From Negaprion brevirostris (Eukaryota): a DNA stretch of 64,000 nt. Positions 2,281 to 51,410 of the stretch are shown here, piece after piece. A program made the translations under genes and the position numbers. The stretch lies in assembly GCA_030324005.1 (NCBI GenBank), contig JARDVH010000132.1:91821905-91885904 (forward strand), written 5' to 3'. The notes beneath the pieces are model-generated. The model did no database searches. It saw only the letters and a list, made by a program, of their open reading frames with translations, and was not told the origin of the DNA. Every line of letters starts with the position of its first letter. Position 1 is the first letter of the stretch.

Positions 2281-2979
2281 CAGCAATCTTTTGCCATTGT
2301 TGCCCCAAGCTTCAGAGTGTTTCTCAGCACATAGTCCTGGACCTTGGAATGTTCCCGTCTACAACACCTGGTGAAGAATGACTCCTTGCACTGGAAAACC
2401 AGCAGGCTCCAGGCAGACTAAAGGGTGTCTTTCACTGATTGATGATCCTTCAGCTGCAGTTGGCGTTTATCATGGTGTGCATCCCTGGGAACAGTTTGTA
2501 CAGCTGAAATACAGAGCTGCTCAGTATGAATCTCAACAAAATCCACTGCATCTCACTCCATATTTTCTTTGCAAAGGTACTTTCCCTTGCAACTGCTGCT
2601 TTATTTACCTCAAAGTGCAAGTAAGTGAATCTGCTCCTGCTTCTCCAATCATAGGTAGATTGTCTTATGCTTTTGCTACTGGTTGGCTCACTAAGCCAAG
2701 AGAGACTGCTGGGAGGTGGGGGGAGATCGAGAGGGTCTGGGAGAGGGGGGCATTTGGGGCTGGCCTGGACACATCCAGGAGGCCAGTGATGTAGGATCTC
2801 AGAGCAGGCCAGTGATCGAGCTGGCCCGTGACTGGGAAGCCTGCAGTGTGGGACTACTACACATTTGCCGATTTCGGTGCTAACAGATTGGTGTGCGCGC
2901 AATGGCCCACTCAGCACTATGCTGCCAGCCTCTCGGGCGGGAATAGGCCCCGCTCCCAGTTTTTCATCCTGATTCATGG

Positions 2980-3095
2980 ACGGTGTGGAACTGAGTCACG
3001 ACAGATCAGCCATGATCTTATTGAATGGCGGGGCAGGCTCGAAGGGCTAGATGGCCTACTCCTGCTCCTATTTCTTTTGTTCTTATGTTCTTATG
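2980..3095 (+). mobile_element. CR1 (HER1-like) 3' end, young subfamily
   Basis: cagccatgatcttattgaatggcggggcaggctcgaagggc...ctcctgctcctatt followed by a (ttcttatg)n tail; near-identical to 45585-45660. Confidence 0.85.
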
Positions 3096-3448
3096 TGATG
3101 AACAGAGTGTGGGAGATTTATTTTGACAATCCCTTAAGAAACCAGTGGGATTTACTCTAGTTTTTACTTGAATTCAGCACTTCGAATTTTTTGGGAGAAG
3201 CCTGGCCATAGTGAGAGGTTAGCAGTTGAGAATTGTACCTTGTCTTATTTAGGTATTGTCCAGTTGTTAAATGTTAAGCTAGTTTATTGGCCATTGTTAA
3301 GTAAAATTTATTTTGATAAAAGCTTCCCTGCGTGTCAGTACAAGTTTACCTGGAGAAAAACATCAGATCCTCACATTAATGCCAAAAATTGTTTGGGACT
3401 AGTCTGACTTCATAATATACCCTGGGGTTTCTGATCTGTACCCTAACA
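3094..3448 (+). mobile_element. Probable solo LTR
   Basis: TG...CA termini. The 3' end (ctagtctgacttcataatataccctggggtttctgatc...taaca) resembles 52441-52488. Confidence 0.5.
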
Positions 3449-4384: not shown

Positions 4385-4690
4385 TTTTAAAATCAATTTA
4401 CAGGATGTGGGAGTCACTGGCTAGGCCAGCATTTATTGCCCATCCCTAATTGCACTTGAGAAGGTGGTGATGAGCTTACTTCTTGAACTGCTGCAATCCC
4501 TCCAGTGTCAGTACACTCACAGTGCTGTTAGGAAGGGAGTTCCAGGATTTTGACCCAGCGACAGTGAAGGAATGGCCGATATATCTCCAAGTCAGGATAG
4601 TGAGTGAGTGTATCTGCTGCCCTTGTCCTTCTGGATGGAAGTGTTTGGGGGTTTGGAAGGTGCTGTCGAAGAAACTTTGAGTTGTTGCAG
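4385..4690 (-). mobile_element. 3' end of the LINE family seen at 31167-34242
   Basis: Reverse complement matches about 33930-34240 (tcaaaatcctggaactccct...ttcaagaag...ctcaag.gcaattagggatgggcaataaatgctggcc). Confidence 0.85.
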
Positions 4691-4719: not shown

Positions 4720-5090
4720 TCCCTTCACCAGCACATACATAAAAGCCAAAAGAGTAAGTAGGGAGAAAGTAAGGCCTCTTCAAAATCAACAAGGTCATCT
4801 ATGTGTGAATGGGTTATCCACAAGAGATGGGCCACATCCTATTTTTCCATGAGTATTTACTGTTGAGAAAAGCATGGATATTAGGGGAAATAAATATGGT
4901 GTCTTGGAGTGTACATATTACAGACGTGGTAGTGCTGGAAGTCTTAAAGCACATCAAGCAAGATAAATCCTCAGGACCTGATGATGCGTATCCCAGGACA
5001 TTGTGGGTGGATACAGAGAAAATTGCAGGTCCCCTGGCTGAGATGTTTGAGTACTGGAGAGCCTGTTTCCATGCTGTAAACCTCAATGAC
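4720..5090 (+). mobile_element. CR1 ORF2 fragment joined directly to its 3' tail (internal deletion)
   Basis: Translates to YIKAKRVSREKVRPLQNQQGHLCV and LKHIKQDKSSGPDDAYPRTLW...EKIAGPLAEMF, then gagcctgtttccatgctgtaaacctcaatgac. Confidence 0.8.
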
Positions 5091-5099
5091 AGCCTTTAC

Positions 5100-6290
5100 T
5101 GAGGATTGAAGGAAAGGTGGCTCATGAGGCTTCCAGTCAGGTCCTCTTCACCTCGGGATCTACAACACTGGGCAAAGGTGCAGGCTCCGAAACCCCCATT
5201 GGCTGCTTCCCATTGGGTAAACCTCTGCTCACTCAAAAGCAGGCCATACCCCATGGATCCCACAGGGAGATCTACTGATGATCCCCTGTGACCTTCTTGG
5301 TCATCATAACAGGTTGGATTTGGAGAAGCTCCAATAGATTGTACAGTGGCTTTTTGCCATTTTATGCTTTGCATTCCCAATGCACAGGGTGCCTTCCACA
5401 TTACCTTCCACCTCAAGGCCCATATCTATCATTGTTCACAATGACCTGAAGATCCAGACCCACTTTGAGCAGATAGTCAGTGTTCATCTTAGTTGTACAT
5501 TCATCCATGCAGGATTCATTGCACAAGAGCCTCAACCAGCTGACAGTACGTTCAAACACAAGCAATGGGCTGTTATCCCACCTGGCTAAACAAGAGGCAT
5601 CACAGCCAAAAACCAGGGACCTACACAAAAAAAACTCAGCATCCTGGAGCCTCTATGAGAATGGGCCAAGCCAATGTCATGAAAACATGGACGTTACTGT
5701 CACAAACACAGCACATCTGGACTTGACAGGCACCCAACATCAGGTTAAACACAGCACACACCATCAGCAATCACAACTTGTTACGCGCCACTAGAATTCA
5801 TGGAAAGAGACAGTACAAAGGAAGCCATACAGCCCCGACCATCCATGCCAGCTCTTTCAAAAGAGCGATCCAATATATTTTCCCAACACCCTGTAAATTG
5901 CTGACAGGAAGGATGAAACCTCCAGTCTTTCTTCTGACTCAAGACTTTATGGTCACTTGACAGAGGTGCTGGACTTAAATCAAGGCCAAATAGCTAGCTC
6001 ACAACATGAAGTGGTACAGGCTCCAACTAGCCCTGGAGCTCAATCCCTCTCCCTCACTCATACACAATCAGCAAGGTCCCGGCTCCCACCTTTGCCAGAC
6101 AGCTGATGCCCAGGTCATACCATCTGGGCTCCTGCAGTTCATCTTGGTTCACGTCTCCCTGACCCCAAGGACAAGATGACCGGGAGATGCTGTTGGGGGA
6201 TCAGAAGAGGGTCCCATGTGGTTACACCACTCCCCCACCCTACCCGCCCAATTTTCTTTTCCCTCCCCACCCATCTGGCAACGTCCAGAT
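5100..6290. mobile_element. Possible highly decayed PIF/Harbinger-derived segment
   Basis: Weak minus-strand resemblance to the transposase (VQ..VCD near 5700) and GC composition like the other Harbinger relics; not securely alignable by eye. Confidence 0.3.
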
Positions 6291-10711: not shown

Positions 10712-11564
10712 TAATTTGATTTATTATTGTCACATATATTAGTATATAGTAAAAGTATTATTTCTTCCACGCTATAAAGACAAAGTATACCTTACATAGA
10801 GCAGGAAAGGAGTGGGTGCATAATGTAGTGTTGCATTCATTGCTAAGGTGTAAACAAAGATCAACTTAATATAAGGTAGGTCCCTTCAAAAGTCTGATGG
10901 CAGCGGGGAAGAAGCTGTTCTTGAATCAGTTGGTACGTGACCTCAGACTTTTGTATCTTTATGCTGGCTGCTTTTCTATGGCATCAGGAAATGTAGACAG
11001 AGTCAATGGATGGAAGACTGGCTTGTGTGATGGATTGGGCTTCATTCAGGACCCTCTGTATTTTCTTGCGGTCTTGAACAGAGCAGGAGCCATATCAAGT
11101 TGTGCTACACCCATGAAGGATGCTTTTCACGGTGCATCTGTGAAAGTGGTGAGACTTGTAGCGGACATGCCAAATTTCCTTAGCTTCCTGAGAAAGTAGA
11201 GGCATTGTTGAGCTTTCTTAACTATAGCATTGGCATAGAGGGACTAGGGCAGGGTGTTGGTGATCTGGTCACTTAGAAACCTAAAGCTCTTAACCATTTC
11301 CATTTCATTCCCATTGATGTAGACAGGGGCATGTCTAGCCAATGACTAGCTCCTTCATTTTACTAATATTGAGAGAGATATTGTCATCACATCAGTTCAC
11401 CAGATTCTCTATCTCATTCCTGTACTTAGTCTCATCATTGTTTGAGATCAGCCCCACTATGTGTCATCAGCAAACTTGAAAATCAAGTTGGAGGGGAATT
11501 TGGCCACACAGGCATAGGTGTGCAAGGAGCATAGTGAGGGGCTGAGGACACAGTCTTGTGGGGC
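10712..11564 (-). mobile_element. Rex1/Babar-clade LINE, RT to 3' end
   Basis: Reverse strand has APQDCVLSPSLCSL and KFADDT (tgtcatcagcaaactt). Tail ...gtgacaataataaatcaaat matches 46415-46567; same family as 43505-44305. Confidence 0.8.
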
Positions 11565-11664: not shown

Positions 11665-11737
11665 AACTGGTCGGCGCAACATCGTGGGCCGAAGGGCCTG
11701 TTCTGCGCTGTAATGTTCTATGTTCTATGTTCTATGT
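11665..11737 (+). mobile_element. CR1 3' tail, very young subfamily
   Basis: gcaacatcgtgggccgaagggcctgttctgcgctgtaatg(ttctatg)3; identical to the reverse complement of about 42850-42910. Confidence 0.88.
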
Positions 11738-11739
11738 AA

Positions 11740-12080
11740 ACCAAGACAGATGCTCTTGAGACATGGTCTTAAATCTCACCATGACAGCTGGTGGAATTTA
11801 AGCTGGAATATAAAACTAGTGTAAGCAATGGTGACCATGACAATTATCATTGTTTGTTATAAAAACCTATCAGGTTCGCTCATGTCCTTTGGGGAAGTAA
11901 ATCTACCATCCTTACTGTGTCTGGATTACATGTAACACCAGATCCACAGAAATGCAGTTGACTCTGAATTACCCTCTGAAATGGCCAAGCAAGCCACTCA
12001 GTTCAAGGCTAATTAAGGATGGGCAACAAATGCTGGCTTTGCCAGGAATGTCCACATCCCACGACAGGATATATTTTTAA
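11740..12080 (+). mobile_element. SINE sharing the 5' and 3' ends of the 31167-34242 LINE (head truncated)
   Basis: Body aligns to 31215-31482; tail aligns to 34171-34235. Confidence 0.8.
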
Positions 12081-12594
12081 AAATCATTTTTTTTTACAAT
12101 TGCTGCCTGGAGTGATAGCAATAGAGGTGGGTCCATGCCCGTACTATACCAGTAATGAAAACCCTCTGTAACGACAATGGGCTAGAAATTGCTGTTGCCA
12201 ATGTTAACAGACAAGAAACTAATACATTTCTCTCTTTGATATTTTGATAGGTGTGATTATCCAAAATTGCTAAAATCACATATCTGTCTATATTGGTATA
12301 GTGTCTATCTTTATAGCTTTAATGGTAAGTTTTCACTACCAGTGGTTGGAGTTTTCTAACTGAAAGGGCGGTCCCGCGTTCATTATCCATTTCAAACAGC
12401 ATGTGAGACTACAGGATGTCACACCCCACTTCAATGGAGACCGTCATCTTTCATTATGAAGCCAATGTGAGAACTGCTGAGAGCTGGACTAATAGATTGG
12501 CATGGAAGCACTGCAATCACTACTTATCTTTGTGAAGGACCTGAAATAGTACATAAGTATTGCCAGCGGAGATATCCATCTCCATTATTTCACT

Positions 12595-13385
12595 ACTGGA
12601 GTTTTTCAAACAAGTAACAAGCAACATGGATAAAGATGAACCATGGGTGCACTAAACTTAAATTTTCAGAAGGCACTTGATAAGGTGCCAAAGGTTATTA
12701 TGCAAAATATGAGCTCATAGTGCAAGGGATAACATAAGGGATTATGGTTGGTGCAGACCTTATGGGCTGAATGGCCTCTTTCTGGACTGTGGGGATTCTA
12801 TGATTCTATTCTATGATTGTGTGAACAGCATGGAATGAGATTGATTGGCTAACAGGAAACAGAGAACAGCCATTAATGGGCCATTGATAGGTGTGAAAGT
12901 AAGCTGTAAAGTGGACATAAGAAGACTGCAGAGAAATATAGACAGGATAAGTGAGTGGACAAAATTTAACAGATGAAATATAGTGAGGGAAAATGCAAAT
13001 TTGTCCACTTTGGCAGGAGGAATAAATAAGCAGCATATTATTTAAGTGGAGGGAGATTGCAGAACTCTACTTTGGAGGAATTTGGGTATCCTGGTACATG
13101 AATCACAAAATGTTAGTATGCAAGTGCAGCAAGTGACTGAGAAGGCACATGGACTGTTATCTTCATTGCAAAGGGAATGGATGCTTTGCCACAGTTGTAC
13201 AGAATGTTGGTGAGGCCACAACCAGAGTATTGTGTACAGTTTTGGTCTCCTTATGAGAGAGGATATGAATAAGTTAGAAAAGGTTTATTAAGTGATACCT
13301 GGGTTGGAGGTTTATCCTATGAAAGAAGCTTGGACAGGCTGAATCTGTATCCATTGGAATTTAGAAGTAGAAGAGGTGATTTGTC
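12595..13385 (+). mobile_element. Decayed CR1 ORF2 (RT) with an HE1 tail inserted at about 12745-12818
   Basis: NFQKALDKVP, LQRNIDRISEW, LVRPQPEYCVQFWSP and LEFRSRRGDL motifs, with stops and deletions. Confidence 0.85.
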
Positions 13386-13509
13386 ATTGAGTAGTTCAAT
13401 GGTTCTCTCTAGCACCACCCTTGTGAATGTGCGATTCCTGTTGTATCTCTTTTTCCACCTCTGTTACTGGGTGTCAGAGTGGGATCACGAGCCACCATTT
13501 CAGGGAATA

Positions 13510-14445
13510 CTTGACACCCAGGAGCCATCCATCCAAATGAGCAGAAGCAATGAACAGCCCTGATACCTGTGAATGTTTCAGAATGTAAGCATCATGTTAG
13601 CTACCAGGATAATGGGGGACTTGCAAGATCTGCCTTGTGGTCACAGATGATCTAAACATTCATTGAATCAAATTTTTTGGCTTCACAAGCGTATATGGCT
13701 CACCTGCAGGCGCCTTGATGGTCATATGATTGATGTTGATGGCATCCTAGATGCAGGGAAGCCTGCAATTGCTGTGAAACCTCTAGTCCCCTCAGCTTGA
13801 CAGACCTCATCTGTCAGAATGTATGCCATCACCCATCTGAAGAGATAACAAGCTTAATGCNNNNNNNNNNACTGTGGGCAGCAGATTGGGACACACCACA
13901 CTGAACTCCCACTGACCCCTGGTGGTGTAGAGGTTGAGGGTCACTTTGACCTTCAGAGCCATTGGCAGAGGATAGCCACCCATTCAGTTGGACGTGATAT
14001 TTTGCCCACTTCTCCAGCATATGGTGATGACAATGTCCCTTTGGCACTGGACCTCGGACATATTGAGGTCATTGCAGGCCAGTGGCATCTCCTGGAAATA
14101 CCAGAGGCAGAGCCAGGGTGGGCCCTCTGGGAAGCCCTATTGCAGAGGTTCCCCTGGATTGCCTCAGCTGTGGGAAGGGATTGTCTGATTGCTTGTGGAC
14201 TCATGTCCATGGGGGCGTGGGGGGGGGGGTTAGTTTTGTTTTAGCCCAGATCAGGGGCACACTTTAAAAAAGGTTTCCAATCAGGCCCTGAGCCATGCAT
14301 GATGTCGGAAACCACAGACCCAGATTTTCTGTTCAGAATACCGGAGAATTTGGAGACTAAACTCTTCAAATTAGCTGGAGAACGACACACTAGTTTCCTT
14401 GCCCTGGCTAGCACTCTGTGCACTGAGTGCAAAATTCTACCTAAA
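13510..14445 (-). mobile_element. PIF/Harbinger transposase pseudogene (HARBI1-like DDE)
   Basis: Reverse frames give LNMSEVQCQR, MALKVKVTLNLY, CGVSQSAAHS, GFTAIAGFP, HMTIKAPAGEP, SMNV*IICDHK, YPGS*HDAYILKHS and DGWLLG. TIR-like ggtagaattttgcactc near 14426-14442. Confidence 0.85.
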
Positions 14446-23143: not shown

Positions 23144-23407
23144 ATGTTCCAGGAAGAAACAAAGGAAAAATGTCAAAGGCACCCCAAAACTTTCCTTTAA
23201 AGGCAGCTGCTTTAATGACTGGAAGGAGCTTGTTACCAATCACTCAGAATGGCAACAACTTCTCCATCAAACTGCATTGCACTTTGAGGAAGAATAAACG
23301 TAGAGAAGGAAAGAAAAGGCAGCAAATCCTGCACTCTGGATCTCACTGCCTCGGGGGATGTCCCAAAGATTTGCGGGTTCAAAATCAGCCTGCTTAATCA
23401 CATAAAG

Positions 23408-23727
23408 GGTTAGTGGTATTATCACACTAGACCATTAATCCAGAAACTCAGCTAATGCTCTGGGGACCTGGGTTCAAATCCCACCATGGCAGCTGGTGGA
23501 TTTGGATTCAATATAAAAAATCTGGAATTAAGAATCTACTGATGAACATCTGGTTCACTAATGTCCTTTAGGGAAGGAAATCTGTCGTTTTTACCCAGTC
23601 TGGCCTACATGTAACTCCAGAGCCACAGCAATGTGGTTGACTCTCAACTGCCTTTGGGCAACTAGGGATGGGCAATAAATGCTGGCCAACCACCAATGCC
23701 CATGTCCCACAAATGTTTTTAAAAAAA
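23408..23727 (+). mobile_element. tRNA-headed SINE sharing both ends of the 31167-34242 LINE
   Basis: tagtggtattatcac head and B-box ggttcaaatcc. Body aligns to 31180-31452; tail gggcaactagggatgggcaataaatgctggcc aligns to 34175-34235. Confidence 0.88.
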
Positions 23728-24802: not shown

Positions 24803-25345
24803 AGAAACACAGAAAATAGGAGCAGGAGTAGGCTATTTGGTCCTTCAAGATTGCTCTGCCATTCATTATGATCATGGCTGAACATCTAATTTAGGAACCT
24901 GTTCCTTTCTTCCCCCATATCCTTTAGCCTCAATAAATATATCTAAATTTTGAAAACATATATCATTTTGGCCTCAACTGCTTTTTGTGGTAGAGAATTC
25001 CAGAGGCCGACCACTGTCTGGATGAAGAAATTTCTCCTCAATTGTCTTAAATGGTTGACCCCACATCCTTCGACTGTTTAGGTCTCCTTATCTGAGAAAG
25101 GATGTTCTTGCTATGGAAGGAGTGCAGTGAAGGTTTACCAGACGGATTCCTGGGATGGCAGGACTTACTTACAAGGAGAGATTGCATTGGTTAAGGTTAC
25201 ATAATGGTTATAGTTTTGGAGTCCCCCGTCATCGAGAACATCCTTCCTACGTCTTACTTGTCTTGTTTTGTTATAATTTTATACGTTATGAGATCCCCAT
25301 CATTCTTCTAAACTCTAGTGAATATAACTTCAATAGACTTAACTT
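24803..25345 (-). mobile_element. CR1 3' fragment with an opposite-strand CR1 piece inside (25079-25203)
   Basis: Minus-strand tail aggagcaggagtagg...; plus-strand SPYLRKDVLAMEGVQ*RFTR. Confidence 0.8.
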
Positions 25346-29214: not shown

Positions 29215-29560
29215 ATGCCATGCTTTACTTCACCAAGTTCCTTAGGCAGCATCTTCCAAATGCACAACCGCTACCATCTAGAAGGACAAAGACAGCAGAT
29301 ATATGGGAAAAGCACACATGGAAGTTCCTGTCCAAGTCACTCACCATCCTGACTTGGAAATATATCACTGTTCTTCCATTGTCACTGAGTCAAAATCCTG
29401 AAACTCCTTCCCTAATAGCATTGTGGATGTACCATGTACATAGAATGCAGTGATTCAGGAAGGCAGCTCACTGCCACCTTCTCAAGGACAATTCGAAATG
29501 GGCAATAAATGCTGGCCTAGCCAGTGATACCCACATCCCATAGGTTAATTTTAAAATAAC
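29215..29560 (+). mobile_element. 3' end of the LINE family seen at 31167-34242
   Basis: LRQHLPNAQPLPSRRTKTAD...SKSLTILTWKYI, then the ctcaaggacaattcgaaatgggcaataaatgctggcc tail. Confidence 0.85.
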
Positions 29561-30739: not shown

Positions 30740-31166
30740 CAAAGGCAATATGGGTTGACCTTCACAGTTTGAACCATCTCAAGAAATGTCCTCTGTGCCC
30801 TTTGCCACTGCACAGAGGGATTTCCTGAATGGGCTGCTTCTGTACACCATCCATTACCATGCCCTCGCCCGTCACCCAGATACATCTTGGTGGTCTTGTT
30901 CCTGTCCAACAGCAGAGATGCCCAGTGGAGGCCCCTCTATGAAAGTATCTGGGTGGAGGGTAGTGCACGCAGCAGTTCCATTCATCTGTAAATTGCAGCG
31001 GTTCATGGGCTCCCAAGTAACTTGTCCTATTTGCAGTCTTGTGGAGTCCGCGTATCAGGTCTATGTTCATTGCTTTAGACCACACTCCCTTTTTCATTAT
31101 CTGTAAAACCTTTTATTAATGTTTTGTTTGCACTTCAGTCCCACACTCCTGATGTACAGGCACCTA
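30740..31166 (+). mobile_element. Tx1-clade LINE ORF2 C-terminal (zf-RVT-like) relic, left part
   Basis: GWRVVHAAVP...CPICSLVESAYQVYVHC...LFHYL*NLLLMFCLHFSPTLLMYRH. Confidence 0.8.
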
Positions 31167-34100
31167 GGGACGCGATAGCCTAGTGGTATTATCACTCAAT
31201 TATTAATCCAGAAACCCGGATAATGTTGTGGGGACCTGGGTTCGAATCCTGCCATGGCAGATGGTGGAATTTGAATCCAACAAAATATGTCTGGAATTAA
31301 GAGTTTATTGATGACCATGAAACCATTGTTGATTGTGAGGAAAAACCCATCTGGTTCATTAATGCCCTTTTGGGAAGGAAATCTGCTGTCCTTACCTGGT
31401 CTGGTCTATGTGTGACTCCAGAGCCACAGCAATATGGTTGACTCTTAACTGGTCTCTGGAGTGGCTTAGCAAGCCACTCAGTTGTAACAATCACTACAAA
31501 GTCTCAACAAAGAAATGAAACTGGACAGCTACCTGTCATCAACCTAGGCACCGGAAAAGAAAATGGCAAAAAAAACAAACAGCCCTGTTAACCCTGCAAA
31601 GTCCTCCTTACGAACATCTGGGGGCTAGTGCCAAAGTTGGAAGAGCTGTCTCACAGACTAGTCAAGCAACAGCCGGACATAGTTGTTCTCACGGAATCAT
31701 GCCTGGCAGATAACACCCCAGACACCGCCATTACCATCCCTGGATATGGCCTGTCCCACCGACAAGACAGACCCAGCAGAGGTGGCGGCATAGTGGTATA
31801 CAGTTGGGAGGGAGTTGCCCTGGGAGCCCTTAAACATTGACTCTGGAATCCATGAAATCTCATGGCTTCAGGTTAAACATGGGCAAGGAAACCTCTTACT
31901 GGTTACCACGTACAGTCCTTCTTCGGCTGATGAATCATTATTCCTCCATGTTGAACAACACTTGGAGGAATCATTGAAGGTGGCAAGGGCACAAAATGTA
32001 CTCTGGATGGAGGATTTCAATGTCCACCACCAAGAGTGGCTCGGCAGCAGCACTACTGATCAAACTGTCGGGTCCTAAAGAATATAACTGCTAGACTGGA
32101 TGAAAGAACCAACAAGAGGAAATTACATTCTTGACCCNNNNNNNNNNNNNNNNNNNNNNNNNNNNNNNNNNNNNNNNNNNNNNNNNNNNNNNNNNNNNNN
32201 NNNNNNNNNNNNNNNNNNNNNNNNNNNNNNNNNNNNNCCTCAGGATTACTTGCATGTCAAATGGCAAAAATGGCAAGTGATAGACAGAGCTAAGCGATCC
32301 CACAACCACTGGATCAGATCTAAGCTCTGCACTCCTTCCACATCCAGTCAAGAATGGTGATGGGCAATTAGACAACACACTGGAGGAGGAGGCTTCACAA
32401 ATATCCCCATCCTCAATGATGAAGGAGCCCAGCAGATCAGTGCAAAAGATAGGGCTGAAGCATTCACAGCAATCTTCAGCCAGAAGTGCTGAGTGGATGA
32501 TCCATCTCAGCCTCCTCCAATGGTCTCTGCATCTCAATGTCAGTCTCTAGTCAATTCGATTCACTCCAAGTGATATCAAGGAACGGCCGGAGGCATTGGA
32601 TATTGCAAAGGCAATGGGCCCTGATAACATTCCGGCAATAGTAGTGAAGACTTGTGTTCCAGAACTTGCCGCTACACTAGCCAAGCTCTTCCAGTATAGT
32701 TACAATACTGGCATCTACCAACAATGTAGAAAATTGGCCAGATATGTCCTGTACACAAAAAGCAGGACAAATCCAACCTGGCTAATTATCACCCAGTCAA
32801 CTCTCAATCATCAGTAAAGTGATGGAAGAGATCATCAGNNNNNNNNNNNNNNNNNNNNNNNNNNNNNNNNNNNNNNNNNNNNNNNNNNNNNNNNNNNNNN
32901 NNNNNNNNNNNNNNNNNNNNNNNNNNNNNNNNNNNNNNNNNNNNNNNNNNNNNNNNNNNNNNNNNNNNNNNNNNNNNNNNNNNNNNNNNNNNNNNNNNNN
33001 NNNNNNNNNNNNNNNNNNNNNNNNNNNNNNNNNNNNNNNNNNNNNNNNNNNNNNNNNNNNNNNNNNNNNNNNNNNNNNNNNNNNNNNNNNNNNNNNNNNN
33101 NNNNNNNNNNNNNNNNNNNNNNNNNNNNNNNNNNNNNNNNNNNNNNNNNNNNNNNNNNNNNNNNNNNNNNNNNNNNNNNNNNNNNNNNNNNNNNNNNNNN
33201 NNNNNNNNNNNNNNNNNNNNNNNNNNNNNNNNNNNNNNNNNNNNNNNNNNNNNNNNNNNNNNNNNNNNNNNNNNNNNNNNNNNNNNNNNNNNNNNNNNNN
33301 NNNNNNNNNNNNNNNNNNNNNNNNNNNNNNNNNNNNNTAAGGTCAGAAATGGGGATGTTCGTTGATGATTGCACAATGTTCAGCACCATTCGCGACTCCT
33401 CCGATACTGAAGCAGTCCATGTTCAAGTGCAATAAGATCTGGACAATATTCAGGCTTGGGCTGACAAGTGGCAAGTAACATTTGCGCCACCCAAATGCCA
33501 GGCAATGACCATCATCAATAGGAGACATTCTAACCACCGTCCCTTGACATTCAATGGTGTAACCATCATGGAATCCCCCACTGTCAACATTCTTGGGATC
33601 ACCATTGTCCAGAAACTCAACTGGACTCACCACATAAACACAGTGGCGATAAGAGCAGGTCAGAGGCTAGGAATACTGCGGTGAGTAACTCATCTCCTGA
33701 CTTCCAAGAGTCTATCCACCATCTACGAGGCACAAGTCAGGAGTGTGATGGAATACTCCCCACATGCCTGGATGGGTGCAGCTCCAACAGCACTCAAGAA
33801 GCTTGACATCATCCAGGACAAAGCAGTCCGCTTGACTGGCACCACACCTATTAACATTTAATCCTTCTATCACCAACAATCAGTATCAGCAGTTTGTACT
33901 ATTTACAAGATGCACTGCAGCAATTCATCAAAGATCCTTAGACTGCACTTCGCAACCCATGACCACTTCCATCTAGGAAGACAACAGCAGCAGATACATG
34001 GGAACAGCACCACCTGCAAGTTCCCCTCCTAGCCAAATATATGGAAATATATGGTCGTTCCTTCGCAGTCACTGGATCAAAATCCTGGAATTCCCTTCCT

Positions 34101-34242
34101 AACGGCATTATGGGTCAACCAGCAGAACATGGATTTCAGCGATTCAAGAAGGCAGTTCACCGCCATCTTCTCAAGGGCAACTCAGGATGGGCAATAAGTG
34201 CTGGCCAGCCAGCAACGTCATGTCCCACGAATGAATAAAAAA
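31167..34242 (+). mobile_element. Near full-length, inactivated CR1/L2-group LINE (APE + RT, no visible ORF1) with a tRNA-like 5' head
   Basis: A-box tagcctagtgg (31176-31186) and B-box ggttcgaatcc (31239-31249). APE: NIWGLVPKLEEL...PDIVVLTES...GGGIVVY...EDFNVHH. RT: KAMGPDNIP, MFVDDCT, AWADKWQV. Has stops and frameshifts, two N gaps and an aataaaaaa end. Confidence 0.9.
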
Positions 34243-34620
34243 CCCAGTGTGGAGAGAGGCAGAGAAGGCACAGGACCTCCTCGTGAACCTGCTCCTGGAC
34301 CTAGCCAAATGAGCTATTAACAGGTCCAGGCAGCGGATGACCGAGGGGGTCGTCCAGCCCAGCTGCTTGCCCTCCACTGCAGCTAAATTCACAGCAGGGT
34401 GTCCCTGTGAGGGATCGTGCAGTGTCCAACTGTGCCATTGAGCCCTTCCGTGTTCATTGTGCACCACAGGGACTGGAGTGTATTATCAACCCCTTAAACC
34501 ACATTTTAACTTAATGTTTGAAGTTTCTTTTCCACTTTGATTTTGTTTTGGGTGATTCCTTTCTTGGTAGGGGCTGCCCCTTTTACTTTGTCCCTCAGTT
34601 TATTTGATTTGCAAAAAGGA
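34243..34620 (+). mobile_element. Tx1-clade LINE relic, right part and 3' UTR
   Basis: PVWREAEKAQDLLVNLLLDLAK*AINRSRQR...APQGLECII continues the reading interrupted at 31164; T-rich 3' UTR. Confidence 0.8.
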
Positions 34621-35940: not shown

Positions 35941-38064
35941 TGTGATCTTCCCTGAGCCTTCAGTTCTTTATACACATCAAGGCAGAAATATGCTTGTGCA
36001 GTGCAGCTTCAAGCATTAGGCAACTTACATTGATTCCCTGGGTACAGGAAACACTGCAGAATACTACATGCTTAGCCCGGACAGATTCTTCAGTGATATC
36101 AATGAGGAATGTGTGCAGGTCATGCAAATATCCAAAGCCAGAGCCCTGTTTGCCACTAATGAATCAACCCAAGTTTGCTAGCTACGTGAACAAATTTCTT
36201 TTCCGGCTGACGAACAGGTAATGTGTTTCTAGCATCTTCTGTATTTTTTATTTCCAATATTCATGGTTTTTCTTTGCTTCACTACCTACTCAGAATGATC
36301 ATCTGTTTTGTTGAAACACTTTTGTAATGATATCAATAAAGCCAATAACACCTGTGTCATCATGAATGGTTTTTCATATTGTTCATTAATGGAGCTGTGA
36401 AGAGAATTTTAAAACCCCAACATCCCCACTCAATGAGAAACAGCAAGTAAAAGAGAAGTGCAATTGATCAGCATTTGAAAGTTTAACATTTTGTGTGGGA
36501 CTCTTCAACAGAGCATCATGAAAAAAGACTCTGGAACTAACAGCACTAACAAACTGAATGGCACGTGTAAGTTGAAAATTTTAATAGGCCATTCACTCTT
36601 TTGAGGGGGAGGCAAAGAAGGTAGGGTGCAATGAAGAGTATGTGGCCTGTCTCTTTAGTATCTCCTCTCAAATGATCTTTCTGAAACACATGCCTCTATA
36701 GTTGAAAATTCACAGGCTTCTTTTGATTCACCATAATAAAGTGCATGCGGTGATATTTTATTCAGCATGCAGCTTTACTGTGCTACCTCCTAATAGTGAT
36801 AATTGCTCTTGCATTCATAATCAGTGGGGTAATTTTTATCCCCCAATAATGGGTGAATTGGGAGCATGTAGGGACTAGAAGTATTAAATCTTCAAGAGGG
36901 ACTGCAAGTCAGCTTCAACACATTTTCAGACATGTTAGAAAGGTGGCAAACTGGGGATTTAATTATTGCAAGAGGGCAGGTAGTTAGTGGTGCAATTAAA
37001 GGNNNNNNNNNNTTGATGACACCTTTGTAAATTGATTTTAACAGCATTCTAAATTTAACATGTATAGCATGGGGATCCTAGAGTTTAGGATACCAACTAA
37101 TGAAGCAGAAGGGATTGAATTGCCATTTGAGTGGCTATTTAAACTTGTCATTGCCCCATTTGAATAAAAGCTCATTTATTGTAGCTGCTGTCTCTGTTCA
37201 CCCTGGCAATCATTTTGCAAAAAGTATTTAAGGAGATATAGCATTTTTCAACTTTCAAATAGACAGGATCAGGGAGGGAGATATGTTTGATGTATTTGAC
37301 AGCAAAGGTATGGTAGCAGAATGGTATGTTACTGGACTAATAATCCAGAGAACTGGACTAATGATCTAGATATGGTGCCCTGGAATTTTGCTGATTTAGG
37401 AGACCTTTGAAAATAGCTGGCAGGTCCCAATTCTGGGATTTCCAACCCATTCTTGAGCTTTCTGATTTTCATGGGTGCGGCTGATTTAGTTTGCTAGCAT
37501 GCACCCTGAAGTCCTGACTTGACCGGCTCCCTTATGGGGATGGACATGTCCACAATTTTCACAACTATGGCCACCTTTTCAAAGATTCATGGCTAATGGC
37601 ACCTTGGAGATGTTGTAAACTACAGTCTGAGAGAGTCTATGGAAAGGTAAGTTCTAAAGGACCTTATCATGTTCCCTTTGGCAGGTTATGCCTCTCCATC
37701 CATCCCCATGGCTCTCACACACCCGTGCCAAACTGTAGCAATTCCATGTCATTGATCCTCTATACACTATATAGAACCAAATAACTTAATAGTAACTACA
37801 GGATGTGTAGGAAGCAGGCATTCATTCATAACTTTCCATTATGTTAAAGAGAAAGTTATTTTACTACAGGGCAATAAAAGTATCCAGTGTGCGTGACAGT
37901 TAACTGCCTTTTGAAACAGTTTAACAAGTCACTCAGTTGTATTGCATTGTAATGCTGAAGTAAAAAATAGGCAATAATAGATAATAATGATCTTGCCACC
38001 AGATACAACAAAGGAGAATCCAATTCAGTTGACCCTGCAAAGTTCTCTTCACTAACATCAAACA

Positions 38065-39332: not shown

Positions 39333-39648
39333 GGGTGGCACGGTGGCACAGTGGTTAGCACTACTGCCTCACATTGCTAGGGATTCGGGTTTGATTCCTG
39401 GCCTCGGTCACTCTCTGTGTGGAGTTTGCATGCTCTCCCCGTGTCTGCATGGGTTTCCTCCAGGTGCTCCAGTTCCCTCCCACTCAAAGATATGCAGGTT
39501 AGGTCGATTGGCCATGCTAAATTGATCCTAGTGTCAGGCGGATTAGCAGGGTAAATGTGTGGGTTTATGGGAATAGGGCCTGGGTGGAGTTTGGCAAGAC
39601 TCGATGGCCTGAATGGCCTCCTTCTGTAGCGTGGGGATTCTATGATTC
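39333..39648 (+). mobile_element. HE1 SINE (full length)
   Basis: gggtggcacggtggcacagtggttagcactactgcctcac ... gggattctatgattc. Confidence 0.92.
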
Positions 39649-39845: not shown

Positions 39846-39954
39846 ATTTCAATTAGAAAATATTTCATTGAGGATTTTGAGCCTTTGCAACTCTCCTTCT
39901 CAAAAGGTAGTGGAAGCAGAGTCTTTGAATATTTTAAGGTAGAAATAGATAGAT

Positions 39955-40218
39955 TAGAATCATAGAATCCTACAATGCAAAAGGAGGCCATGCAGCCCAT
40001 CAAGTCTGCACCGACAATCCCACCCAGGCCCGAGCCCCATAACCCCATGTATTTACCCTAGCTAGCTCCCCCGACACTAAGGGGCAACTTAGCATAGTTA
40101 ATCCAGCAAACCTGCACATCTTTGGAGTGTGAGAGGAAACCGGAGAATTGGGAGGAAACCCACGTAGACACAGGGGGAATGTGCAGGCTCCACACAGACA
40201 GTGACCCAAGCCGGGATT
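39955..40218 (-). mobile_element. HE1 SINE, 5'-truncated, inserted in a CR1 3' fragment (39845-40330)
   Basis: (tagaatca)n tail; body matches the other copies. Confidence 0.9.
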
Positions 40219-40474
40219 CTTGAAAAGTAAGGGGCTGGATAGTGAATTGAGGGTAGGCCGGAATGTAGAGTTGAGGTTACATTCAGATTAGTCATGATCT
40301 TATTGAATAGCGTAGTGACCCACTCCTACCCCTAGTTTGTATGTTTGGTAGGGGTGTGAGTATCTGAGGGTGGAATCTGATGAGGTAAAATCAGAAATGG
40401 TAAGAGAAGGCAGACAATCAGTGAGTGACTCTCAAAGGCGGAGGAAGCAAAAGGTAGAAAATGAGAGAAAGATA

Positions 40475-41055
40475 ATAAAAAGCAAAATACTGCAGTTGCT
40501 GGAAATCTGATATACAAACAGAAAATGCTGGATAAGTGCAGCAGGTCTGGCAACATCAATGGAGAGAGAGAAACGGAGTAAACGTTTTGAGGCCATATGA
40601 CTATTTCAGGTCTGAAGAGGGGCAGAGGGGTGACAGATTATATAGTTGGAGAAGAGAGTGGAGAAGGTGTGACGGAATAGGTCAGGGATAGGTGGGAGCT
40701 CGGTGAGATTGACAAAGATGTCATGGACACAAGACAAAGGGAGTGTTATTGAGAGTATTAATGATTAAAGAAGGTGCTGACAGAGGCATTAAGGTAAGAT
40801 AATAGCTTTCTTCTCCACCGTAGGGATTCTATGATTCTATGATAAGAGAATGTGTTAATAGGAGAACAAAGGTCAGCGCTCAGAGAAAGCAGAACAGAAG
40901 AACAAGTGACAAATGGCCCTGGGAGGTAGGTGGGGTTTTGTGTTGCGACAAATAAAAAGCTTTCAAGGTGAAGGAAAAAGTTCACAGTCTAAAAGTTGTT
41001 GAACTCAGTGTTGACTCCAGAAATTGTAATGTGCCTGATCAGAAAATGAGGTGTT
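40475..41055 (-). mobile_element. Penelope-like element 3' region
   Basis: aaaagcaaaatactgcagttgctggaaatctga...gaaaatgctgga...gacaaagatgtcatggacacaagac; reverse of 7600-8026. Confidence 0.7.
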
Positions 41056-41382
41056 AGAATAGAATAGACTACCTACAGTGCAGAAGGAGGCCATTCAGCC
41101 CATTGAGTCTGCATTGACCACAATTCCACTCAGGCCCTATTCGCGTAACCCCATATATTTACCTCACTAACCTTCCCTGACTCTAGTGTCAATTTAGCAT
41201 GGCCAATCAACCTAACCTGCACATCTTCGGACTGTGGGAGAAAACCGAAGCACTCGGAGGAAACCCACGCAGACGCAGGGAGAATATACAAACTCCACAC
41301 AGACAGTGACACGAGGCAAGGAATTGAACTCAGGTCCCTAGCGCTGTGAGGTAGCAGTGCTAACACTGTGTCACCGTGCCGC
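41055..41382 (-). mobile_element. HE1 SINE (full length)
   Basis: Reverse complement of gcggcacggtgacacagtgttagcactgctacctcacagcgc... Confidence 0.92.
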
Positions 41383-42835: not shown

Positions 42836-43087
42836 CATAGAACATAGAACATAGAACATAGAACATAGAACATTACAGCGCAGAACAGGCCCTTCGGCCC
42901 ACGATGTTGCNNNNNNNNNNNNNNNNNNNNNNNNNNNNNNNNNNNNNNNNNNNNNNNNNNNNNNNNNNNNNNNNNNNNNNNNNNNNNNNNNNNNNNNNNN
43001 NNNNNNNNNNAGACACCGTATGCCTTCTTAACAGCCCTATCCACCTGATTCCCAACTTTCAGGGATCTATGTACACATACACCTAGA
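42836..43087 (-). mobile_element. Young CR1 spanning a 100-N gap
   Basis: (catagaa)5 tail; LGVCVHRSLKVGNQVDRAVKKAYG beyond the gap. Confidence 0.9.
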
Positions 43088-43504
43088 ATAATCTTTAACA
43101 TTTTATATTTGTGAAATTATTATGTAAGTTTGTCTTCCTCCTGCGTGTTTTTTTTTATTGTTGTTTTGTAAGGAACCATCACAAATAATTTTCAATGTGT
43201 AGGGCTTTGAAATGTTGCAACATTATAAGCTGTTATATAAATGCAGGTATTATTATTTATTAGCATTGAAGCAGAAATGTTTGCTGATCTATACTGAATA
43301 GCATTCAAATCATTTCATTAACCTTTTGTTAAAAGCACAATGGGACTGTCCATTTATACACAATAGGACCTTGGAGACAAGCAAATAAATGTGAATGTGT
43401 GTGTCCTTTGTAAACTTTGCAATAAAGATATGCTATTATAGAAGCAGAATGTTGCAGATGTTGGAAATCCTAAATAAAAACAGATAATACTCAGCAAGTC
43501 AGAC

Positions 43505-44305
43505 AACAATTTGATTTTCAAGTTTGCTGACGACGCCACCATAGTGGGTTGGACCCCAAACAATGACGAGACAGAGTACAGGAATGAGATAGAAAACCTG
43601 ATGAACTGGTGCGGCAACAATAACCTCTTCCTCAATGTCAACAAAACAAAGGGGGTTGTCATCGACTTTAGGAAGTGTAAAGGAGAACACGCCCCTGTCT
43701 ACATCAACGGGAATGAAGTAGAAAGGGTCGAGAGCTTCAGATTTTTAGGTGTCCAGATCATCAACAACCTGTCCTGGACCCCCATGTCGACACCAGAGTT
43801 AAGAAAGCCCACCAACTCCTTTACTTTCTCAGAAGACTAAGGAAATTTGGCATGTCAACTACGACTCTCACCNNNNNNNNNNNNNNNNNNNNNNNNNNNN
43901 NNNNNNNNNNNNNNNNNNNNNNNNNNNNNNNNNNNNNNNNNNNNNNNNNNNNNNNNNNNNNNNNNNNNNNNNNNNNNNNNNNNNNNNNNNNNNNNNNNNN
44001 NNNNNNNNNNNNNNNNNNNNNNNNNNNNNNNNNNNNNNNNNNNNNNNNNNNNNNNNNNNNNNNNNNNNNNNNNNNNNNNNNNNNNNNNNNNNNNNNNNNN
44101 NNNNNNNNNNNNNNNNNNNNNNNNNNNNNNNNNNNNNNNNNNNNNNNNNNNNNNNNNNNNNNNNNNNNNNNNNNNNNNGAATGGACTTACCTTGCATTAA
44201 GTTGATCTTTCTCTACACCCTAGCTATGACTGTAACACTACATTCTGCACTCCCTCTGTCTGTATAGCGCAATAGAAACAATACTTTTCACTGTATGTTA
44301 ATAAG
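43505..44305 (+). mobile_element. Rex1/Babar-clade LINE RT to 3' end, inserted into a Penelope terminus (minus, 43438-43508 and 44305-44346)
   Basis: IFKFADDATIVG...YRNEIENLMNWCGNNNLFLNVNKTK..IDFRK...VERVESFRFLGV. Confidence 0.9.
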
Positions 44306-45407: not shown

Positions 45408-45661
45408 TCAGTTCCGGGAGGAGTTCGGTATATATTCCCATACACACACGGACCAAAAAAAATCCCCAAAGTCGGGCGAGTTTTNNNNNNNNNNNNNNNN
45501 NNNNNNNNNNNNNNNNNNNNNNNNNNNNNNNNNNNNNNNNNNNNNNNNNNNNNNNNNNNNNNNNNNNNNNNNNNNNNNNNNNNNTTGAATGGCGGGGCAG
45601 GCTCGAAGGGCTACATGGCCTACTCCTGCTCCTATTTCTTATGTTCTTATGTTCTTATGTC
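45408..45661 (+). mobile_element. Young CR1 3' tail after a gap, preceded by a CpG-rich segment that may be its 5' end
   Basis: Tail with (ttcttatg)3 at 45585-45660; assignment of the 5' part is uncertain. Confidence 0.6.
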
Positions 45662-50749: not shown

Positions 50750-51410
50750 AGCCTTAGTTCATTGATAGTGCTCTTACCTCTGAGTCAGTAAATCATGTGT
50801 TCAGACCCTGCTCGAGACATTTAACCATAAAATTTAGGTTGATACTTTAGTCCAATACTCAGGGAATGCTGCACTGTCAGAGCTGGCATCCTTTCTATGA
50901 GAAAAATTAATTTATTTGTTGTTGTGTTGGAGGAAATACTGCTGCTCTTAGCTCTTAATCAACACCACCAAAACCTGATCATAAGGGGCAGCACGGTGGC
51001 ACAGTGGTTAGCACTGCTGCCTCACAGTGCCAGGGCCCCAGGTTCAATTCTGGCCTTGGGTGACTGCCCGTGTGGAGTTTGCACATTCTACCCGTGTCCT
51101 TCAGGTACCCCAGTTTCCTCACACAGATCAAAGATGTGTGGGTTAGATTGATTGGCCATGCTAAATTGACCCTGCTGTCAGGGGGATTAGGACTGTAAAT
51201 ATGTGGGGCTAAGGGGATGGGACCTGGATAGGATTGTTGTCGGTGCAGGCTCGATGGGCCAAATGCCTCCCCCTTGCACTGCAGATTCTACAATTCAGAG
51301 GGCAAACTTTTAGAACAATAAGAATCTATCCTCTCTATGATTTATATGGCTGTTGCTTAGAGGATCTTGCTGTATGGAAATTGGCTCCTGCATCTGACTC
51401 CACAACATTG
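50750..51410 (+). mobile_element. Deu-type SINE (SacSINE1-like) interrupted by an HE1 SINE
   Basis: tagtgctcttacctctgagtcag...aatactcagggaatgctgcactgtcag head and body; resumes at ggatcttgctgtatggaaattggct after the insert. Confidence 0.65.
50985..51296 (+). mobile_element. HE1 SINE (full length)
   Basis: ggggcagcacggtggcacagtggttagcactgctgcctcacagtgccaggg... Confidence 0.92.

Follow-up and report, generated by a model that had tools for sequence, protein, structure and literature searches.

LINEs are conventionally assigned to Pol II and SINEs to Pol III, a polymerase thought to be too limited for a coding element, and reviews, as represented in the available part of PMC10886601, hold both that LINEs use Pol II and that the processivity of Pol III limits length. 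The closest described element is elasmobranch Zenon, a CR1-group LINE that ends in poly-A and has no ORF1, an absence that is normal for Zenon, with 612, 1,419 and 2,313 long copies in three species (PMC13343379, within the main text and supplement rows covered here); a whale-shark preprint, in the portion available, mentions a CR1-Zenon-like LINE in passing. The main text of PMC13343379 makes no mention of tRNA, promoter or polymerase III, and it remarks on neither a promoter-like head nor any avoidance of T runs. No paper on a tRNA-headed coding LINE was found in the full-text literature, a body of work that stops short of most subscription journals and of Repbase Reports, and a SINE-type head on Zenon seems to have gone unremarked in the literature searched. 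Here we describe one copy of this LINE in a 64-kb stretch of Negaprion brevirostris DNA (hereafter, the window). The family, elasmobranch Zenon, is known; what is added here is the avoidance of T runs by its coding strand.

A decayed Zenon copy and its tRNA-like head

The element, at 31167..34242 on the + strand, is a decayed full-length copy of elasmobranch Zenon (a CR1-group LINE) that landed as one unit in an older LINE relic. Its parts, and the two halves of the relic that it interrupts, are the following:

30760..31164, + strand: left half of the older LINE relic that the element interrupts, covering a C-terminal zinc-binding region (Pfam zf-RVT, E 0.004); the frame runs on into the right flank, and empty-site joints occur in other contigs
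31167..31262, + strand: tRNA-like head, with an A box at 31176-31186 and a B box at 31239-31249; the 5' end lies 9-10 nt ahead of the A box
31263..31486, + strand: body common to the short SINE-like copies; no match to the printed Deu, Meta and UCON3 domains
31487..31600, + strand: linker of the LINE form, with a family-conserved AUG at 31515, not in the APE frame
31601..32137, + strand: APE endonuclease (Pfam PF03372, PF14529), broken by a frameshift and stops
32138..32237, no strand: N run, with ~400 nt absent by comparison with P0131
32238..32838, + strand: broken mid-ORF2, reaching to where the RT begins (tblastn against P0131 and P0032)
32839..33337, no strand: N run hiding the RT core, ~400 nt
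33338..34190, + strand: RT from the catalytic motif onward and C-terminal region, broken (Pfam RVT_1)
34171..34242, + strand: 3' tail common to the short copies, with a short poly-A of six A at 34237-34242
34243..34420, + strand: right half of the interrupted relic, with the CC duplication at 34243-34244

The interrupted relic, which we take to be Tx1 (the only match obtained was the weak one to zf-RVT, E 0.004), is a single continuous frame when the element is taken out, and CC is duplicated (2 bp) at the edges (31163-31164 and 34243-34244). In contigs of two public runs the left flank is joined directly to the right (6-8 and 4-8 contigs, among the matches listed), in agreement with the preliminary description, which had read the flanks as two halves of a single frame. 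The same description had placed an APE and RT about 430 nt after the head with no recognizable ORF1, and so we found them: the APE frame starts at 31601, 434 nt past 31167, the region upstream of the APE holds no long frame (the longest AUG-started one is 42 aa), and the element has a single APE-RT frame without ORF1. Stops and frameshifts in ORF2 likewise confirm that this copy is dead. Pfam matches to the pieces (PF03372 E 6e-5, PF14529 E 4e-5, RVT_1 E 6e-5) all fall below the curated cut-offs. The nearest full-length proteins are ~30-38% identical to the ORF2 of the element, the RT core of this copy being inside an N gap; the nearest of all is P0131, for which only APE-RT families are named.

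Both promoter boxes proposed for the head were recovered. The A box (31176-31186) fits TRGCNNARYGG, and the B box, GGTTCGAATCC at 31239-31249, stands 52 nt from it at the 5' end of the element; this A+B pair is the only one in the window, and 300 simulated windows yielded 2 pairs by chance. ARAGORN and Rfam gave no tRNA match on the head of this decayed copy, and the fold z of the head is -0.2. In the supplement rows for the Zenon consensuses, an anticodon-like stem-loop with AGT can be made out by eye. Elsewhere in the window, at 37305-37385 (+), there is an isolated head fragment of the same family that, by eye, is nearer to the dogfish-type than to the whale-shark-type consensus, so more than one subfamily left copies here.

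To place the head within the family, Zenon consensuses were compared over the first 400 nt of each supplement row of PMC13343379, the seven from elasmobranchs being RhiTyp_Zenon-1, CarCar, ScyCan, HypSab and SquAca-1/2/3. Over that span, head, body and join were present in all seven (5 species) and in none of the three hagfish or coelacanth Zenons. Three B-box words searched against the first 400 nt of ~900 CR1-group consensuses matched six rows, all of them elasmobranch Zenon (the seventh elasmobranch consensus, from a stingray, has a degenerate B box), and motifs of the body, the join and the APE start were found in Zenon rows only. Compared by eye, the head is ~85% like RhiTyp_Zenon-1 over the first 113 nt of that row. 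The consensuses bring neither an ORF1 nor a longer 5' UTR, the two features that the preliminary description had named as contrary to its reading: Zenon is without ORF1, and the rows start, by eye, 5-10 nt ahead of the A box. Judged from these sequences, the Zenon lineage in sharks and rays has a putative tRNA-type internal promoter at its 5' end.

T runs in the coding strand

Runs of at least four T in the non-template strand terminate Pol III, and a LINE that this polymerase transcribes would therefore be expected to have none. The base for a test is one decayed copy, with 2,147 nt of body visible (~800 nt are hidden in gaps), plus two short fragments. The relatives of the element and the other repeats of the window that enter the comparisons are these:

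23405..23725, + strand: SINE-like short form, with head and body to ~31451 followed directly by the tail; 3 of 4 runs share this joint
11770..12075, + strand: SINE-like short form with a longer body, which runs to ~31483 and there meets the tail; run X2 shows this joint as well
29235..29556, + strand: 5'-truncated LINE copy, 3' end only, 73% identity
4385..4700, - strand: 5'-truncated LINE copy, 3' end only, 70% identity
38788-39100, 39337-39648, 39949-40219, 41054-41382 and 50988-51296: five copies of a different SINE family with a tRNA head and a CR1-type tail, presumably HE1-like, used as the positive control for T runs
11148-11564 (-) and 43430-43872 (+): two RT relics, 75% alike, which we take to be Rex1-like
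12560-13700 (+), 25040-25240 and 4900-5100: decayed relics, presumably of CR1 type

The coding strand of the element avoids Pol III terminators. Runs of at least four T are absent from the body, against 3.9 expected when bases are shuffled (5 of 400 shuffles as low) or 2.5 when dinucleotides are shuffled (23 of 400), and runs of at least three T number 6, against 17.5 (base) or 13.0 (dinucleotide), with none of the 400 shuffles as low in either case. TTT is the most depleted of the 64 trinucleotides in the body (6 against 16.1), and each of the three sequence pieces holds fewer runs of at least three T than expected (1 against 4.6, 0 against 5.1 and 5 against 7.8), as do the two other 3' fragments of the LINE (1 run against 4-5). 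T runs on the antisense strand of the body are not significantly low, and A, C and G runs in the body are not comparably low. A similar bias appears in the codons: phenylalanine is encoded by TTT twice and by TTC 13 times, against T and C endings of 104:115 in codons whose second base is other than T (p 0.014), and shuffling of synonymous codons gives p 0.02 for runs of at least three T and p 0.08 for runs of at least four. Taken alone, the absence of TTTT is borderline under the dinucleotide and synonymous-codon nulls.

Part of what T-run content the element has is peculiar to this copy. At four of its nine T runs (31305, 33894, 33903 and 34136), more than 90% of contig depth is non-T, among the 40 of 767 rows listed, and its sole TTTT, at 31368, is TTT or less in the supplement rows of all seven elasmobranch consensuses.

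Controls were drawn from the window and from consensus sequences. Pooled as a negative control, the Rex1, CR1 and flank relics of the window, which are short and old and whose limits were drawn by eye, are not depleted, with 49 runs of at least three T against 43 expected and 12 of at least four against 11.7. In the hagfish consensus CR1-7_EBu, which by eye resembles the same group, 8 runs of at least four T were counted in ~2.4 kb (also by eye). In the first 400 nt of the supplement rows, TTTT was found by eye in all three headless Zenons and in 13 of 16 whale-shark CR1 consensuses, against none of the seven elasmobranch Zenons; the one whale-shark Rex1 row is also free of TTTT over 400 nt. 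The positive control, the five copies of the other SINE family, is depleted, with 18 runs of at least three T against 26 and 3 of at least four against 7.6. The two short copies with the same head as the element show no depletion (9 runs of at least three T against 7-8), and interrupted terminators (TTTVT type) in the body are not significantly low (7 against 11.4, 80 of 500 shuffles).

This avoidance of T runs shifts whole-element transcription by Pol III from a guess to a better-supported reading, and we consider it probable, on sequence grounds, that Pol III reads the element from end to end, in which case selection would have cleared T runs from the coding strand, as the depletion suggests. 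An explanation that we hold possible rather than probable is that the head, a fixed trait all the same, is a captured 5' UTR, with Pol II making the full-length RNA, the A and B boxes serving only the short copies or binding TFIIIC, and the low T content having some other cause (for example, avoidance of premature cleavage, splicing or RNA decay signals). LINEs generally use Pol II and a cap would ease translation, and the borderline result for TTTT alone, like the undepleted short copies that share the head, would sit comfortably with such a 5' UTR. However, it does not readily account for a depletion that is strand-specific, strongest for TTT, and absent from the other LINE relics and the headless Zenons, nor for consensus 5' ends that sit at the expected Pol III start and A and B boxes that are retained in the LINE consensuses of 5 species (both as seen in the supplement rows).

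Integrity of the copy and of the head-APE join

The window contains 17 N runs; those at 32138-32237 and 32839-33337 lie inside the element and are absent from the preliminary description. Other N runs adjoin two pairs of duplicate stretches, one identical over 62 nt (11676-11737 and 42849-42910) and one 97% identical over 76 nt (3021-3096 and 45585-45660), which represent either a young repeat or an assembly effect.

With two gaps inside the element, and no compared contig covering the whole stretch, the copy might be an assembly artefact in which pieces of different copies were joined across the gaps. We regard this as very unlikely: the head and the APE are on one unbroken sequence piece, both N runs being further 3'; the three pieces are collinear with the full-length relative P0131; the resulting length of ~3.28 kb (including ~400 nt per gap) matches the 3.24-3.31 kb of five Zenon consensuses (overall range 2,886-3,314 in the supplement rows); and the outer flanks together make up a single frame. 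Even if the copy were such an artefact, the family-level findings would be untouched.

Public runs containing part of the stretch numbered 24, and the contigs of 4 were compared. One contig, with 48 differences and 8 gaps, spans 31454-31745 and so crosses the join from head through linker to APE; joints between 31490 and 31580 were seen in two runs (4 and 6 contigs), and linker indels are common to 16-28 contigs (in both cases among the matches listed). In whale shark, the gene models P0001 and P0004 run unbroken from the end of the head through the linker into the APE. These are two of the four models that reach the head among the 20 family-level gene models listed (in the others, P0002 and P0006, part is missing); two more start at the linker AUG, and the remainder start within the APE or come into it from unrelated sequence. 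Models that do not reach the head are uninformative on the head-APE join. Searches for a full-length shark protein of this LINE gave 1 match among 69 APE candidates, 0 among 526 for the RT piece and, for P0004, 6 of 8, these being short gene models, which is weak evidence. No loci related to the element were found in viral contigs, metagenome contigs or prokaryote genomes.

The head is almost certainly a family trait. The preliminary description had taken head and body to have arrived together, and the join shared by all seven elasmobranch consensuses, by diverged contigs and by the whale-shark gene models upholds that view; a chance SINE insertion should have left other copies headless or joined at variable positions, and the join is fixed in 7 of 7 elasmobranch consensuses. 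A one-off chimera, whether made by an RT template switch from LINE RNA to SINE RNA or by a SINE coming to lie beside a truncated LINE, is practically untenable, for although head-to-tail short copies are far commoner than linker plus APE in summed contig depth (a rough ordering, not copy number), the family-wide join refutes it, and the element has a single tail and flanks that form one frame.

Short relatives, proposed mechanism and known systems

The copies at 11.8 and 23.4 kb are short and non-coding, as SINEs are; the 31167-34242 element, at 3.3 kb with an APE-RT, is not. Breakpoints of the short form in the public runs fall at 31451, 31458, 31481-83 and 31513, and the joint at 31513 (one record of one run) keeps ~30 nt of the LINE linker. 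Such nested breakpoints favour the short copies as internal deletions of the long LINE, and we think it reasonably likely that they derive from it. The breakpoints are silent on where the head first came from: it may have been donated by a SINE (a chimera) or fused directly, with SINE-like copies arising later. The preliminary description's proposal of a SINE-LINE chimera that mobilizes its own SINE-like derivatives is thus sustained in part: the element is one unit without ORF1, and its short relatives share head and tail; however, the family is one already described as elasmobranch Zenon.

A SacSINE1/Deu label for the short copies was considered and dropped, since by eye they have no counterpart in the printed alignments of Deu, Meta and UCON3; two Deu motifs are also absent from the window. 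Four of six aligned tails carry a run of 4-5 T just ahead of the A tail (23715-23725, 12070-12080, 29545-29556 and 4385-4400), which may be a decayed A tail or, in some subfamilies, a terminator. One contig of run X21 (depth 117) runs from 34117 back to 31223, a joint that is perhaps a tandem or rearranged derivative.

Our working account is that Pol III transcribes the whole 3.3-kb LINE and that the short SINE-like copies are internal deletions of it, a combination that we judge reasonably likely. Pol III would start a few bases ahead of the A box and read 3.3 kb through the A tail into the flank, as for Alu, and read-through would end at the first downstream T run, which for this copy is at 34504. 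Translation of that RNA would have neither a normal cap nor an AUG in frame upstream of the APE to work with and would depend on reinitiation, frameshift or a non-AUG start; this is the weakest step of the account. The AUG at 31515, kept in most consensuses, does not share the frame of the APE in the stingray consensus (as seen in the supplement rows), P0001 and P0004; the APE frame of other copies has a basic N-terminal extension in the linker; and this copy has no in-frame AUG leading to the APE. In the relatives P0131 and P0032 an in-frame AUG is present. Want of both a cap and an in-frame AUG makes translation hard to explain and counts against the Pol III reading. The APE-RT of a LINE primes on the A tail and leaves little or no target duplication, which the 2-bp duplication at this copy fits. 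Internal deletions that keep head and tail would yield the far more numerous SINE-like copies, presumably moved in trans by the LINE protein, as the nested breakpoints suggest. Taken as a whole, the account would make Zenon an autonomous coding LINE that is transcribed end to end by Pol III from its own tRNA-type promoter, has been kept across sharks and rays with its T runs purged, has its uncapped RNA translated without an in-frame AUG, and is both promoter donor and parent of its own SINEs; we lean towards this complete version, with some caution.

If true, a natural 3.3-kb Pol III unit encoding a 950-residue enzyme would break the split between Pol II and Pol III elements, and the family would be a living intermediate in the origin of SINEs, with the head on a coding parent and SINEs arising by deletion. 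The translation of a Pol III RNA would also become testable in a natural system. With hundreds to thousands of long copies per genome, the family matters for shark repeat annotation, which may at present split head and body into a SINE and a LINE. Counting T runs costs little, and any repeat library can be screened in this way for further cases.

Among known systems, the LINE R2 sets a precedent in that its RNA does not come from Pol II and is translated with neither a cap nor a normal AUG; it is co-transcribed with rDNA by Pol I and has no promoter of its own. The other comparisons concern elements as presented in the available part of each source. With elasmobranch Zenon (PMC13343379), this copy shares the same 5' 400 nt, the length, the single APE-RT frame, the lack of ORF1 and the poly-A tail, and it is a member of that family. 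SacSINE1 and the Deu-SINEs of sharks (PMC5499810) are likewise shark elements with a tRNA head and a LINE-type tail, but the partner of SacSINE1 is L2 and its body is a Deu domain, whereas the body of our element has no match to the printed Deu alignment. Cassandra, Helenus and Ajax (TRIMp3; PMC10886601) are also retroelements whose Pol III promoter derives from a small-RNA gene; they are, however, non-coding LTR elements of 0.3-1.3 kb, and their author argues that coding partners must use Pol II. In lepidopteran Zenon and Persaeus (PMC6740152), a Zenon LINE has repeatedly yielded short deletion derivatives that retain 5' and 3' parts, as appears to have happened here, but Persaeus lacks both homology to tRNA and a Pol III promoter, whereas the shark parent and its derivatives share the A/B-box head. 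Finally, SINEs with LINE-derived bodies and bipartite non-autonomous LINEs (PMC5786205) likewise combine a tRNA head with 5' and 3' parts of a LINE in one short element; there the head was added to a LINE already deleted, whereas here the coding parent itself is headed.
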